From: an uncultured Clostridia bacterium
GTDB lineage: Bacteria; Bacillota; Limnochordia; DTU080; RSA5
Assembly (NCBI GenBank): GCA_964424335.1
Contig: CAYRIY010000006.1
Coordinates: 36-64,035, forward strand
Direction of reading: 5' to 3'
Length of the DNA: 64,000 bases
Made by a program: the position numbers and the translations under genes. Below, piece by piece: positions 4,454 through 36,015 of this stretch. Position 1 is the first letter of the stretch. Each line of letters opens with the position of its first letter. The notes under the pieces were generated by a model. That model searched no databases. It was not told where the DNA came from and saw only the letters and a list, made by a program, of their open reading frames with translations.

Positions 4454-7400
4454 TCAGACCACCGCGTCCACGAGGTCGCTGATGAGGTCCTTCACATCGA
4501 CATCAGGCACGATGAACTCTACATCGGAGAGCGAGATGTCAAAGGGCTTTCCTTCCTCGTAATGCACGGGAAACTTCACGCCGAAGCGCAGGTTGGAGCC
4601 GAACTCCATCCTGGCCAGCTCCCAACTCCTCTCGTAGAGCGTGATGGTCTTGAGCAAGAGGTCGAGCTCGACGTTGACGAAGGCCTCGATATTAAAGACA
4701 AACTTGGGCTGTACGTACAATTCGCCGAGGGCGTCGATCTTGAGCCCCTCCGCTGGGGTCCAGTCGATGTTGACACCCGTGTTTAGTGCGCCTTCCAACC
4801 CCAACCGGCCGCCTACCTCAAGCCCTGCCGTGGCGCTCACGATCGGAATCCCGGCGCCGATGCCACCTTGTACGTAAAGGCGCAAACCGGCGGACGCGGG
4901 CACATGGAGCTCGGCCGACCCCGTGACGTGCGTCTGGTCCTCGTGATCGGGATTGTAGGTGATGCCAAGCGATACGTTGCGGAGCACCCCGGGGCCGATG
5001 CCCGCCTCGGCTTCGAGTCCGCCTCGAATCGTCGCGAAGATGCCAATGCGACGGCCGGCCGCCGCCACGCCGATGATCGGGATGTCGAGGGGAGGCGGCC
5101 TGAGGATGTCCTTTTCGTACGCCAACCTCTCGAAAAGTTCGATGGTATCGGGAAAGCCGATCTGCCCGGAGATCTCGATCTCGCCGTTTTCTAAGAGCCG
5201 CAGTCCGACAGTGCCCTGGAGCCAGGGAGCGATCCGCACCGTCACGCTGCCGCCGCCAAAAGCCCGCAAGGTGTCTCCGGGTTCGCCGCTTGGTTCGCCG
5301 CTGTCGTCGACTGGACGATTGGTCACGCCTAGCTCGACGCGGCCCTTCATCATGCCGCGCTCGTACTCGGCCGATCCCTGGATCGTAAAGAGGCCGTCGT
5401 CGTAGCTCACGCTCAAACTCGTATCGACCCCGGGAATGTCGGGCTGGGCCGAGCCTTCGGCGCTCACCTTCCAGCCGTCTTCGCCTTTTCGCACCGTCAC
5501 GTCGATCGAGCCGCTGCGGATGCCCGGGACGTCTTGGGAAAGCGTGAAGCCTCCCCCAATCGTTAGGCCGTCCTGCTCGGAAAACGAGAGCGACATCCTA
5601 CCTTGCTCGATCCCGGGAATGTCCGGGGCCACCTCGCCTTCGGCCGAGAACAGGCCGCTCGCGTACTCCGCAGTGATGCGCCCCGAGCGGATGCCTCTGA
5701 CTTTTCGCGGGCCGATGACGAGCGTCCCTCGGGCGCCAAACGCGTCGTCCCGGTACCAAAGGTCGATCTCTGCCTGTTCGAATAGGTCCGTGTCAAAGCT
5801 AAAGGAGCCTTGCAAGTGGAGGCCGCCGCGGGAGTTCGCGACGCCTCGCACGTACCCTTCGCCCGCCCCCTCGATGGCAAAGTCGATTTGCCCCTCGACG
5901 ACAAAGCCGCGCTCCGTGCTGATCGCAAGTGTGAGCGACGAGTCGCGCACCACAAAGGGGGCCGGCACGTTGAAGTCGCCCGGACGAAACTCCTTGTAGA
6001 CCGAAAAGTCCGAACCGGAGAGCTCAAAGCCAAGATCGAGGTCGCCGATGAGCGGCGTCTCCGGGAGGATTGCCCCGATCGCGTACAATCCGCCCTCCGG
6101 AAGCACGTCGAAGTAGTCGACGCGAATCGGGCTGAGCCGCTTCACCCGCATGCTGCGCAAGTGCGCACGGACCGCCGCCTTGTCGATATACCCGGCATAC
6201 CGGGCCCCCTGCCAGCGATGAATCGGAATCTCTTTGTCTTCCGGAAATGGTTGCCACTTGTCGTCGTTCTCTTTGACGTTCACCTTGAACGACCCGATCG
6301 AGCTTTGAGACGGAGCGTCGTCACCCTCCGTCACAAAGCGCTTCGATTTGATGACAAAGGGACTGAGCCAGTCGCGCTCGGCAGAGGTTGCCGCCGCCTC
6401 CTTTCCCTCGGCGTTTCGAAGCGAAAACTGCTTTCCAAGGCCGTGGCCGGCTTCGGAGGGGAAAATCCGCACCTTGCCGTTGCCGCCGATGTCGGCCAAG
6501 TTGGCGGGCGCAACGGGCCCGAGGTGATCGCCCTTTTTGATCTCCTCTTTAGTCCAAAAGTCGTTCGGACCCGGCTGCTGGCCGAAGTTGCCGCCGACAG
6601 GGTCGTTGAACTTGAGGTTGTACCCTCTTTTGATCGTCGCCGCGTCGTCGCCGAATCGCCCGTCCGTGGCTTGAATAAACGTGCGAACTTTATCCTCGAC
6701 CTTTTGCTTGATCACACTGCCGGAAGAACGGTTGACGCTCGAATCGAGCAACTCCATGTTCTCAACCGTATTTGCCCAGCTCCGATCTTCGGGCCAATTC
6801 GCAAGTTGGAGCTCGAGCACGTGATCGACGTCGAAGGAGTGCGGCTCGCCCGCCCGGTCCCACTGCGGCAGTGTCAATGCCTTCGCAATCTGTGGCAGCT
6901 CGCCGATGAAGTACAGCGGCTTGTTCTTGCCATATTTCGACGGCGCTTTAAAGACGTACGGCTCGCCGGGAGTGACGGCGCCGTAGGCCTGTTCATACTT
7001 GCTCTGGAGCGCCGTCTCGACTGTGCTCGTCTCTTTGCCGAGATCACGCTGCCAGACTTCCCTCTGGCGCGTGTTTCTGCGACTCTCTTCCGTGTAGGTC
7101 CGAGCTCGCTGCAAGTCGCGCTCGTAGATCGTCGCCCGATGGTCCGAAACCTTGAACATCGGCACCTCGATCTGTGAAAACGTAATGTCTTCGCCTTCGA
7201 GGACGCCCGTCGCTTCGGTCATGGCCGGCGCATCGGTCGCTTGTTCCTGCTCGTCTGTTTGCTCCCCGCCGCCTCCATCGCCTTGTTCGTCTGCATCCTC
7301 GCGCTGCACGATGGCTCCTCGGGAAAAAGTTTGCACCGCTCCTCCCGGGCTCTGCTGCGCCGCGCCCTGCTCGGCGGCGCCCTGTTGAAAGACGTGCGTC

Positions 7401-35397: not shown

Positions 35398-36015
35398 TCA
35401 GTCACCCTCGTTCCCTGGCTGACTGGGTCCAAGCGATCCAAAAGCAAACGAGCGCTCCACTGCCGGCACTCCAGGCTCTCGATCAAGCAACGACTCAATG
35501 CGGATCACCCGAGCTACATACGGCACCGACAGTTGGTAGCTGTGCTCGGCAATCACGTCCCAGATGTGGAAAAGATCCTCGGTGCTCAGGTCGCCAAGCA
35601 CGACTTCCAAACCCTCGTCGGGCCGAAAGACGTTGGACCACACCGCATTTAGGAGCGTAGCGGGCAGGGTTGGCGTGTCTTCGAGCGTTCGCATCATCCA
35701 CCCGACGATCGTGTTTTGGAGCGAAGGGTCCTCGGCCCACGCCGTAAGCAGGAAGTGCGCTTCCAAGGGCAGCTCGCCCCTTTGTACCCGACCATTCGGG
35801 CCTCGCCGACCACCGGGCGTGCGGTTTGTCCCCTCCGCCATCACTCGATATACGAATAGTGAAACGCCTGACTGGATGGAGCCGCTGATAAAATCCTTGG
35901 GCCCAAAGACGCGAAACTCGAGTTCGTTTCCATCGAAGTGCTCCGGCCGGTAACTCGATCGAAGGAGGCGCACGACGGCCTCTGATGCTGCTGCTATGGC
36001 ACGAAACGTCGCCAA
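35398..36015 (-). CDS. tail terminator/cap protein (DUF4255, Afp16/Pvc16 N-domain-like)
   Basis: LPLEAHFLLTAWAEDP matches the DUF4255 L.LHYLLTAW motif. About 205 aa. First gene of the operon, with a TTG start at 36015. Confidence 0.65.
   Translation of the reverse strand: MATFRAIAAASEAVVRLLRSSYRPEHFDGNELEFRVFGPKDFISGSIQSGVSLFVYRVMAEGTNRTPGGRRGPNGRVQRGELPLEAHFLLTAWAEDPSLQNTIVGWMMRTLEDTPTLPATLLNAVWSNVFRPDEGLEVVLGDLSTEDLFHIWDVIAEHSYQLSVPYVARVIRIESLLDREPGVPAVERSFAFGSLGPSQPGNEGD

Follow-up and report, generated by a model that had tools for sequence, protein, structure and literature searches.

Lineage II systems and the subtype IIb gene set

The characterised lineage II contractile injection systems (CIS) found in the literature are cytoplasmic, membrane-dependent or membrane-bound, and none is freely released (PMC12237407, PMC11566945, PMC12998442, PMC11126660). 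Subtype IIb is marked by an afp8 gene split into gp27 and gp5 ORFs, the absence of PAAR/afp10 and a small gene in the afp6 position. Its afp11 is present once, its afp12 and afp13 are divergent, no afp14 can be recognised, and additional conserved genes have no known function; the subtype is distributed over both Gram-positive and Gram-negative phyla (Chen et al. 2019, PMC6899500). In that account the subtype-specific genes are uncharacterised, and neither a tail-anchored protein nor an FN3 sheath is discussed. No experimental study of subtype IIb (imaging, purification or function) was found in the searchable literature.

A complete lineage II cluster of the subtype IIb type very probably occupies positions 4454-36015 of the window (the whole 64-kb stretch of DNA analysed here), which derives from an uncultured, high-GC and probably Firmicute-like bacterium. 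The 20 genes form one tightly packed run on the minus strand and constitute a complete CIS operon with an effector, not a prophage, as the initial annotation had proposed. Junctions between genes measure -16 to +97 nt with three exceptions: one gap of 198 nt, a spacer of about 300 nt between a sheath gene and a tube gene, and an overlap of 215 nt between the ATPase gene and the last gene read as its longest ORF (44 nt if that ORF starts at the probable M58). Every element of the CIS superfamily core backbone of Chen et al. 2019 (tube, sheath, Afp7, Afp8, Afp9, Afp11, Afp15 and Afp16) is present, and so are the split afp8, the one afp11, afp12 with afp13, and the extra conserved genes of subtype IIb, with no PAAR gene found; at that paper's level of description, no difference was detected between the subtype IIb loci of dbeCIS and this operon. 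Judged by gene content and gene order, the operon appears to belong to subtype IIb, and the scores of sheath A and Afp11 against solved proteins of subtypes IIa, IId, Ia and Ib support its affinity to lineage II.

Related loci all share this gene order where they extend across it (at least 20 loci in at least five phyla, drawn from Acidobacteriota, Chloroflexota, Burkholderiales, Actinomycetota and IMG/VR contigs), and this near-fixity across phyla argues for strong selection on an undefined function. The architecture had initially been described as non-canonical. Its features are present and unusual relative to Afp/PVC (Ia), but the description was overstated and the architecture is not new, because the split spike and the lack of a PAAR protein and a tape measure are published defining traits of subtype IIb, and because all related loci long enough to show them likewise have the terminator in first place, two sheath/tube pairs and a tail-anchored protein. 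The locus and its relatives offer a clean parts list, to which the window itself adds no principle beyond its relatives. Three leads emerge from that list: a conserved tail-anchored protein that may set the site of firing, a giant FN3-decorated sheath, and a DUF4157 cargo that may contain a nuclease motif. The question is experimentally approachable through cultured carriers, namely Nocardioides bigeumensis, Aquabacterium parvum B6 and Myxococcus sp. CA033.

The nearest solved systems are the cytoplasmic CIS of Streptomyces (IId) and the membrane-bound CIS of haloarchaea (IIa), not Afp/PVC. The Streptomyces coelicolor system CIS-Sc (IId; 8bky, 8bl4, 9gtp, 9gts) provides the closest or near-closest solved homologs of the sheath, Cis7, Cis11 and Cis12; it belongs to lineage II, and its firing depends on the cluster-encoded membrane protein CisA (PMC12237407). 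CIS-Sc differs from the operon described here in its contiguous VgrG, its PAAR protein, its single sheath and its lack of fibres; the bitopic CisA, whose gene follows those of the baseplate, is unrelated to the 572-aa membrane protein of this operon (TM572). The likeness to Streptomyces and the probably monoderm nature of the host would suit a free-floating cytoplasmic machine of the Streptomyces/Roseiflexus kind, firing inside its producer to cause regulated cell death. Such a mode is improbable: the split spike, the presence of Cis12 and fibre-like Cis13 genes, and the failure to find a PAAR or a CisA-type bitopic protein place the operon outside subtype IId, and diderm Burkholderiales and Acidobacteriota carry the same cluster.

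The T6SS-like CIS of Halogeometricum borinquense (IIa; 9ezm; PMC11566945), the best PDB match for sheath A, resembles the operon in its split spike, in having both Cis12 and Cis13, and in a cluster membrane protein that correlates with the membrane-bound mode. Subtype IIa differs by two afp11 copies and a PAAR protein, and Hbor_38620, the putative anchor of H. borinquense, is a protein with six transmembrane helices whose gene lies outside the core cluster. Afp/PVC (Ia) have in common with the operon the core parts, more than one sheath paralog, a second tube of the Afp5 type, a gene in the Afp6 position, fibres, an ATPase and a 3'-end effector, whereas their terminator is last, their VgrG is fused, PAAR and tape measure proteins are present and a membrane protein is not. 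The Streptomyces davawensis CIS, with its effector Tme (PMC11126660), likewise involves a large effector that has a DUF4157 domain, here joined to a nuclease domain, and its cluster type is spread over distant phyla. It was rejected as a member of the same group because it has a PAAR-like Tip, a contiguous VgrG and a DUF4157 gene (tme) that lies upstream of the baseplate genes; its DUF4157 protein also contains several transmembrane helices. Assignment to the canonical T6SS (i-iii) was also rejected, as the TssJLM, TssA, TssK and TssB/C families have no match in the operon or its flanks, and T6SS lack Afp11 and Afp16, both of which this operon encodes.

Components of the operon

The gene-level calls of the initial annotation were all borne out, the FN3 decoration and the tail-anchor included. 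The components were identified by Pfam, NCBIfam and PDB sequence matches, and profile searches of the core ORFs returned the sheath, tube, baseplate, DUF4255 and AAA families. The first gene of the operon encodes an Afp16/Cis16-type tail terminator, or cap (35398-36015; Pfam Pvc16_N/DUF4255, 4.2e-27), as it does in all related loci that reach that far. Adjoining it is a gene for a lineage-specific protein of 300 aa (34492-35394) that has no Pfam, NCBIfam, PHROG or PDB match but is kept in position with 30-62% identity in ten related loci (L001, L002, L012-L016, L026, L028 and L030).

Sheath paralog A (642 aa; 32473-34401; Phage_sheath_1, 6.5e-22, and Phage_sheath_1C) is probably the main sheath. 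Its top PDB matches are Cis2 of H. borinquense (9ezm, 1e-109) and Cis2 of Streptomyces (8bky, 9e-108), whereas Afp/PVC sheaths reach about 1e-40 at most; in bit scores, 365-371 against the haloarchaeal (IIa) and Streptomyces (IId) proteins compares with 126-160 against Afp/PVC/AlgoCIS. About 8000 relatives are known, with 57-81% identity across phyla. Sheath paralog B (1067 aa; 28464-31667) has sheath domains matched at 2.8e-8 and 6e-5, is 33% identical to sheath A across the C-terminal 200 aa, and has 145 homologs, each of 800-1100 aa. In its AlphaFold2 model (pLDDT 84, pTM 0.83) it carries two FN3-like domains, at about residues 575-665 and 680-790; Foldseek ranks CIS sheaths first (7e-15) and then the tandem FN3 domains of neogenin (2.4e-8, probability 1.0). 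The earlier description of one sheath as FN3-decorated is thus supported by modelling, with no Pfam match to FN3.

Tube paralog A is Afp1-like (31713-32171, the ORF extending to 32213; Phage_T4_gp19, 1.7e-31) and probably starts at M15, because a ribosome-binding site precedes that codon and the homologs are 152 aa long. Tube paralog B (27933-28442; Phage_T4_gp19, 3.2e-33), in the Afp5 position, is 32% identical to it. The spacer of about 300 nt between the genes of sheath A and tube A (32172-32472) is predicted to be structured: its RNA fold has a free energy of -141 kcal/mol (z = -5.6) and contains a long hairpin with perfect arms of 20 nt. Its core is conserved in one related locus (L015), and a check for a dispersed repeat found it a single time in the window.

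The tube initiator is of the Cis7/Afp7 type, starts at M34 and has a C-terminal LysM-like module (27224-27931; Pfam CIS_tube, 1e-25); its alignment to the solved LysM proteins 9gtp_P, 7b5h_AK and 7aeb_M runs over the full length, and the Pfam LysM model gives no match. The next gene, a conserved ORF of 56 aa preceded by a ribosome-binding site (26855-27025), corresponds to afp6 by position and has no match in the families searched, Pfam and PHROG among them; at least 15 loci have an ORF of 52-59 aa, with the motif M[PA]V[IV]INEFEV...R.AH, between the genes for Cis7 and gpD. The split Afp8 begins with a gpD/gp27-like baseplate hub (25763-26848), whose match to Phage_GPD (5.3e-7; 29.6 bits) is marginally under the Pfam cut-off of 30.1 bits, and whose homologs in L016 and L017 do give a Pfam GPD match (L017, a frameshift-ridden long-read contig, was left out for gene calls). 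Its second half is a gpV/gp5-like spike with a C-terminal beta-helix (25044-25778; Phage_base_V, 6.3e-27) that is 59-82% identical in related loci and has its own beta-helix and tip. No scanned ORF matches a PAAR family, and the intergenic gaps are too small to hold a PAAR gene or contain no plausible ORF, in line with the absence initially reported; a very divergent PAAR protein is conceivable.

The remaining baseplate proteins are a gp25/Afp9 wedge (22831-23301; GPW_gp25, 4.3e-23), a single-copy Afp11/Cis11 baseplate J protein (20608-22824; Baseplate_J, 6.6e-10) that matches Streptomyces Cis11 (9gtp_1K) at 3e-56 as against 1e-3 for AlgoCIS, and an Afp12/Cis12-like protein of 966 aa (17648-20548; Tail_P2_I, 2.4e-9). 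The last of these matches TIGR02242 (1e-22) over the cut-off, CIS12_fam (2e-41) under the equivalog cut-off, and 9gtp_E at 4e-8. Two Cis13-like fibre candidates follow. Candidate a (706 aa; 15531-17651), which has no match in a PDB search, resembles CIS13_fam at its N-terminus (1.9e-12, under the cut-off), and its conservation in other loci is confined to the N-terminal 320 aa or so. Candidate b (931 aa; 12701-15496; N-terminal CIS13_fam, 4.5e-4) likewise keeps only its N-terminal 320 aa or so in L016, L019 and IMG/VR loci, and its C-terminus consists of helix-hairpin-helix repeats (HHH_5, 1e-10, and DUF4332).

In the afp14 (tape measure) position is a protein of 755 aa (10426-12693) with no match in any library or in a PDB search; L018 and L019 conserve its N-terminal and C-terminal parts, its middle is of low complexity and variable length, and its position suggests that it may act as a ruler. 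The AAA+ ATPase (737 aa; 8115-10328; AAA, 1.1e-24), which also matches the phrog_10401 ATPase (7e-52), is identified as Afp15-type by its domain and conserved position alone, and adjoins the DUF4157 gene in L019-L021 too. That gene, the last of the cluster, encodes a DUF4157/eCIS_core protein with an HExxH motif (4454-8329; eCIS_core, 7.3e-23) that probably starts at M58 (coordinate 8158). It is a candidate effector: toxins associated with extracellular CIS (eCIS) are typically encoded by the last gene of the cluster (PMC8213781), and DUF4157 is an effector marker (PMC8213781, PMC11126660). Residues ~490-550 contain a weak GmrSD_C/HNH-like motif (E 0.07-0.2), the C-terminal 500 aa have no match, and a PDB search with the effector was empty.

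The tail-anchored protein and the mode of action

Between the genes of the spike and the wedge lies that of TM572 (23332-25050), a lineage-specific, tail-anchored protein of 572 aa that is the only clear transmembrane protein among the operon products and recurs wherever a related locus extends far enough. Its gene overlaps the stop codon of gpV by 7 nt. The family has 1758 members, and the single C-terminal transmembrane stretch, which the initial annotation had recognised as a membrane tail-anchor, is invariant in 42 of 42 homologs and unusually conserved in sequence. TM572 has no Pfam, NCBIfam or PHROG family, no solved structural relative, and no detectable similarity to CisA, Hbor_38620 or any solved protein; a protein search of plasmids returned nothing. 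The structure model shows a confident globular alpha/beta domain, not an extended helix, and a tape-measure function was rejected on that account, while a role as a substitute for PAAR is unnecessary with a spike that bears its own tip.

The components suggest a mechanism, read from the genes throughout, in which a predicted particle would be expressed and assembled. The gpD/gpV hub-spike, with Cis7, would be the core on which the baseplate forms. The baseplate-proximal layers would come from tube B and from sheath B with its FN3 decoration, as they do from Afp5 and Afp3/4, and tube A and sheath A would polymerise into the bulk of the particle, to be capped by Afp16. The ATPase may aid assembly or cargo loading. 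On contraction of the sheath, the spike, which ends in a gpV tip of its own and lacks PAAR, would be driven across a membrane along with the DUF4157 protein.

As to where this happens, the reading tentatively preferred as the most likely is that the machine is not a freely released tailocin but works at the cytoplasmic membrane of its producer, held or triggered there by TM572. It is favoured because the tail-anchor is invariant, the family is large, the gene is coupled to that of the spike, and no freely released lineage II system was found. TM572 may possibly be a previously undescribed kind of membrane adaptor, with a fold that has no solved relative; its anchoring role is suggested by topology and gene position. 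Because the helix is so highly conserved, it could instead pack inside the particle or insert into a target membrane.

The latter alternatives are part of a second reading, in which a classical extracellular CIS would assemble in the cytoplasm, be released by lysis, bind its target through the Cis13-like fibres and inject the DUF4157 protein, TM572 being a spike-associated, membrane-active passenger whose tail is shielded in the particle before it inserts into the target membrane. The two fibre-like proteins, conserved at the N-terminus and variable at the C-terminus, are compatible with recognition of an external target and favour a released particle over the membrane mode; the position of the TM572 gene directly after the spike gene, with translational coupling, and a helix conservation that exceeds the needs of a passive anchor are consistent with a passenger. 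On the other hand, neither lysis genes in the cluster or its surroundings nor a candidate chaperone that could serve a hydrophobic cargo were found, and the literature yielded no characterised lineage II system that is a released particle, so release is rather unlikely. The locus had been called an extracellular or tailocin-like machine; it is an injection system and not a prophage, but that label is not established, because the closest characterised relatives act in the cell or at the membrane (PMC12237407, PMC11566945, PMC12998442).

If TM572 is an adaptor at the producer's membrane, the whole of subtype IIb would be membrane-docked, T6SS-like or envelope-firing, in monoderms and diderms alike. 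Phage-tail machines would then have become anchored to cells by one more route, distinct from those reported for the canonical T6SS, T6SS subtype iv, thylakoid-anchored CIS, CisA and the haloarchaeal anchor.

Flanking genes and genomic context

Pfam scans of the flanks within the 64-kb window, which covered ORFs of at least 120 aa and two shorter ones, detected no capsid, terminase, integrase or lysis families, of which the operon itself had initially been described as free; five ORFs of 71-116 aa (38112-38360, 46225-46500, 52102-52452, 53566-53802 and 58201-58416) lay outside the scan, and one of 566 aa (58463-60163) had no family match in it. These results bear on the view that a defective prophage tail module or R-type tailocin, and not a dedicated injection system, occupies the region. 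The structural genes are all homologs of phage-tail genes, and IMG/VR classes 15 related contigs as viral, but those contigs keep the CIS gene order as far as they extend (the CIS genes alone were compared). DUF4255, the AAA+ ATPase and DUF4157 are marks of eCIS and not of phage tails (PMC6899500, PMC8213781), none of six lineage-specific operon proteins matches a PHROG family, nor does the DUF4255 cap, and the nearest phage sheath is only 34% identical. With head genes also missing from the 64 kb, and with no phage-type tape measure, chaperones or lysis cassette found, a phage or tailocin origin of this kind is extremely improbable.

A T-box leader and a YheC/D ATP-grasp gene are present in the window and make the 'Firmicute-like' context of the initial annotation plausible. 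Downstream of the effector gene, on the same strand, are genes for a TPR protein (3349-4401) and a GT2/methyltransferase (1056-3614), both recognised by Pfam. The gap between the effector and TPR genes is 52 nt with no terminator-like site, and both genes (1056-4401) are possibly co-transcribed with the operon; their membership of the cluster is uncertain. A GT2 that is 45% identical is also found downstream in one related locus (L019).

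The injection system operon and its flanks

The 20 ORFs at 4454-36015 on the minus strand form an unbroken chain (GC3 0.66-0.80) that is a genuine and complete contractile injection system (CIS). The initial annotation had parsed it correctly as a tightly packed operon, and every component that it named was matched in profile searches. All but three junctions between ORFs measure -16 to +97 nt. Of these three, one is a 198-nt gap and one a spacer of about 300 nt between a sheath gene and a tube gene; at the third, the longest ORF of the last gene overlaps the ATPase gene by 215 nt, or by 44 nt if counted from its probable start, M58. 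The operon's G+C content is about 0.63, only slightly higher than the roughly 0.60 of its flanks. Besides two sheaths and two tubes, the operon encodes a DUF4255/Pvc16_N cap (35398-36015), a gpV spike (25044-25778), gp25 (22831-23301), a P2-I/Cis12-like protein (17648-20548), two proteins with a Cis13-type N-terminus (15531-17651 and 12701-15496) and an AAA+ ATPase (8115-10328), as well as a gpD hub (25763-26848) with a marginal Pfam score. The CIS_tube protein (27224-27931) aligns over its full length, LysM module included, with the solved Cis7 proteins of Streptomyces, Anabaena and Algoriphagus. The baseplate J protein (Afp11; 20608-22824) matches Cis11 of Streptomyces at 3e-56 and that of AlgoCIS at just 1e-3.

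A prophage remnant is essentially excluded. Pfam scans of the 64-kb window, which covered flanking ORFs of at least 120 aa plus two shorter ones, detect sugar-transport, regulatory and metabolic genes and none for capsid, terminase, integrase or lysis functions. One ORF of 566 aa among the sugar-utilisation genes (58463-60163, plus strand; GC3 0.65) has no Pfam match. The sole Rfam match in the window is a T-box leader (RF00230, 108 bits, E 5e-23) at 46566-46840 of the plus strand, directly 5' of an ilvB-like gene for a TPP enzyme (46822-48672). The T-box leader hints at a Firmicute-like host, and the earlier guess of a Firmicute-like, high-GC context is compatible with it, with a YheC/D ATP-grasp protein and with the presence of Symbiobacteriaceae among the named relatives.

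Divergent from the operon start lies a signal peptidase I gene (36347-36934, plus strand; Peptidase_S26, 2.5e-46), which also adjoins the operon in L015, an 81%-identical relative; the ORFs 36031-36435 and 36317-36958 of the minus strand are unlikely to be genes. Beyond the other end, the effector gene is succeeded on its own strand by genes for a TPR protein and then a GT2 glycosyltransferase/methyltransferase fusion (1056-4401), and no terminator-like site separates them from it. In the metagenome locus L019, a GT2 protein with 45% identity is encoded about equally far downstream of the ATPase. A link between these two genes and the cluster is possible, if unproven.

Gene order across phyla and the assignment to subtype IIb

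A search with the sheath A protein returned about 8000 relatives of 57-81% identity, with Chloroflexi, Holophagales, Acidobacteriota, Calditrichota and Symbiobacteriaceae among their source names. By tblastn, all window proteins were compared with related loci, as far as the contigs reach, from GTDB genomes (Holophagales, Verrucomicrobiota, Leptothrix, Aquabacterium, other Burkholderiales and Ardenticatena), metagenome assemblies, the cultured actinomycete Nocardioides bigeumensis and 15 IMG/VR contigs. The shared order is cap, 300-aa protein of no assigned family, sheath A, tube A, sheath B, tube B, Cis7, small ORF, gpD, gpV, tail-anchored protein, gp25, Afp11, Afp12, Cis13a, Cis13b and, further on, a 755-aa protein, ATPase and DUF4157 protein. 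Because the order is identical wherever related contigs reach, the layout is, on this comparison, a conserved type shared across phyla and not a quirk of the source genome. The IMG/VR contigs (L025-L039), filed as viral, have the identical CIS order over their extent, and were probably called viral owing to their tail genes. Cultured bacteria that carry the cluster include Nocardioides bigeumensis (GCA_039531755.1), Aquabacterium parvum B6 and Myxococcus sp. CA033.

Chen et al. 2019 (PMC6899500) divided eCIS loci into lineage I (Ia and Ib) and lineage II (IIa-IId). According to this catalogue, IIa, IIb and IIc have a split afp8, with separate ORFs for gp27 and gp5; IIb has one afp11 and alone in lineage II keeps afp6; IIa and IIb retain divergent afp12 and afp13; lineage II generally lacks afp14, and each of its subtypes has two or three conserved genes without a recognisable domain. 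The window locus agrees with IIb on every point of gene content, the agreement for afp6 being positional only. Its assignment to IIb, made by gene content and not by the defining Afp11 tree, is thus well supported but not proven. The features that the initial annotation called non-canonical are present, but they are not new: the anomalies that it listed repeat, nearly verbatim, the diagnostic traits published for IIb (PMC6899500). Similarity to solved structures agrees with lineage II: for sheath A, the haloarchaeal IIa sheath (371 bits) and the Streptomyces IId sheath (365 bits) outscore the sheaths of Afp, PVC, AlgoCIS and Anabaena tCIS (126-160 bits), and the Afp11 matches point the same way. 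Membership in the "widely transmitted group" of the S. davawensis CIS was considered and rejected, since in that system the Tip is PAAR-like, VgrG is contiguous and the DUF4157 protein is encoded upstream of the baseplate (PMC11126660).

Within the searchable literature, which offered nothing on the subtype beyond the 2019 catalogue and reviews, the other finds being unrelated papers, IIb is uncharacterised. As a further member of a subtype already catalogued, the locus is of modest novelty; its greatest value lies in two concrete handles on IIb, the tail-anchored family and the FN3-bearing sheath paralog.

Paired sheaths and tubes, spike and fibres

This set of parts points to a contractile machine of the standard kind, in which sheath A (32473-34401) and tube A (gp19-type; ORF 31713-32213) would form the trunk of the particle. 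By analogy with the Afp gene order (afp1-2-3-4-5-6-7-8), tube B (gp19-type; 27933-28442) and sheath B (28464-31667) correspond in position to Afp5 and Afp3/4 and would probably form the layers adjoining the baseplate. Sheath A and tube A are far better conserved than their B counterparts. The initial annotation had described one sheath paralog as decorated with FN3 domains, and Pfam gives no FN3 or Ig match in sheath B even at E<=1. A module, Y.RVRA...PWSNT, is repeated twice in an alignment of 33 homologs of sheath B. A confident AlphaFold2 model of sheath B (pLDDT 84, pTM 0.83) has CIS sheaths as its best Foldseek matches (Streptomyces Cis2, 7e-15), followed by paired tandem FN3 domains in neogenin, contactin and RPTP-sigma (about 1e-8, probability 1.0). 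Sheath B therefore carries two FN3-like domains, as had been claimed.

The spacer between sheath A and tube A (32172-32472, minus strand) contains a long hairpin with perfect arms of 20 nt (z = -5.6). Its core is about 85% conserved in L015 and absent in more distant loci, and there is no second copy in the window. The spacer may set the ratio of sheath to tube, as an element that acts in the processing, stability or attenuation of the mRNA.

The gpV protein possesses its own C-terminal beta-helix and tip, which explains why a PAAR protein is not needed. Between the Cis7 and gpD genes, an ORF of 52-59 aa (26855-27025, minus strand) is found in at least 15 loci (the window and the related loci L001, L003, L012, L015-L017, L025-L030 and L033-L035), with conserved ends, M[PA]V[IV]INEFEV and R.AH, around a variable Pro/Ala-rich middle; it matches no family model in Pfam (E<=1) or PHROGs (E<=0.01). 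Residues 722-778 or so of the Afp12-like protein (18215-18385, minus strand) match Glyco_hydro_42 at 7.5e-8, and weakly PDB 3tts and 6ptm, probably as a shared structural sub-domain and not an enzyme. The C-terminal 230 aa or so of the 931-aa fibre candidate (12701-13399, minus strand) contain several helix-hairpin-helix repeats (HHH_5, 1e-10; DUF4332). Relatives do not conserve this part, which is what one would expect of a tip that binds a target. Helix-hairpin-helix modules normally bind DNA non-specifically, and a DNA-binding fibre tip would be unusual. The 755-aa protein, whose gene directly precedes that of the ATPase, is conserved at both ends around a middle that varies and is of low complexity; from its Afp14-like position it is a possible ruler.

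The tail-anchored protein, proposed site of firing and candidate effector

The gene for a 572-aa protein (23332-25050, minus strand) overlaps gpV by 7 nt, is translationally coupled to it and is found in each related locus that spans its position. The protein is hydrophobic in one stretch alone, at the very C-terminus, which all 42 aligned homologs keep with nearly fixed sequence (…SIPIITICA…LN.VFWW.PFFKIC.P), none of them having a second one; this bears out the proposal of a membrane tail-anchor. The family numbers 1758 cluster representatives at E<=1e-3, 901 of them at <=1e-30, and has no Pfam, NCBIfam or PHROG model; no solved relative was found by sequence or by fold.

The lineage II systems characterised in the literature cited here all act within the cell or at its membrane, and several of them involve a membrane protein encoded in the cluster: S. 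coelicolor has CisA (PMC12237407), haloarchaea have Hbor_38620 (PMC11566945), the S. davawensis CIS attaches to the envelope (PMC11126660), and Roseiflexus and Deinococcota form free cytoplasmic particles (PMC12998442). Because of these analogies, a membrane-associated mode is tentatively favoured for the window system. Two fibre-like proteins with variable C-termini count against it, however, as does the very high conservation of the hydrophobic helix, which would also suit a spike-borne passenger that inserts into membranes. Release as an extracellular system is rather unlikely, and a free cytoplasmic death machine is more doubtful still.

The 1291-aa DUF4157/eCIS_core protein encoded by the last gene (4454-8329, minus strand), which has an HExxH motif, fits the description of eCIS-associated toxins, namely an N-terminal DUF4157, a long linker and a C-terminal domain (Geller et al., PMC8213781). 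Since its GmrSD_C/HNH-like motif, at residues 490-550 or so, is only weakly detected (E 0.07-0.2), its candidate nuclease activity is just a lead, for which Tme of S. davawensis provides a precedent (PMC11126660).
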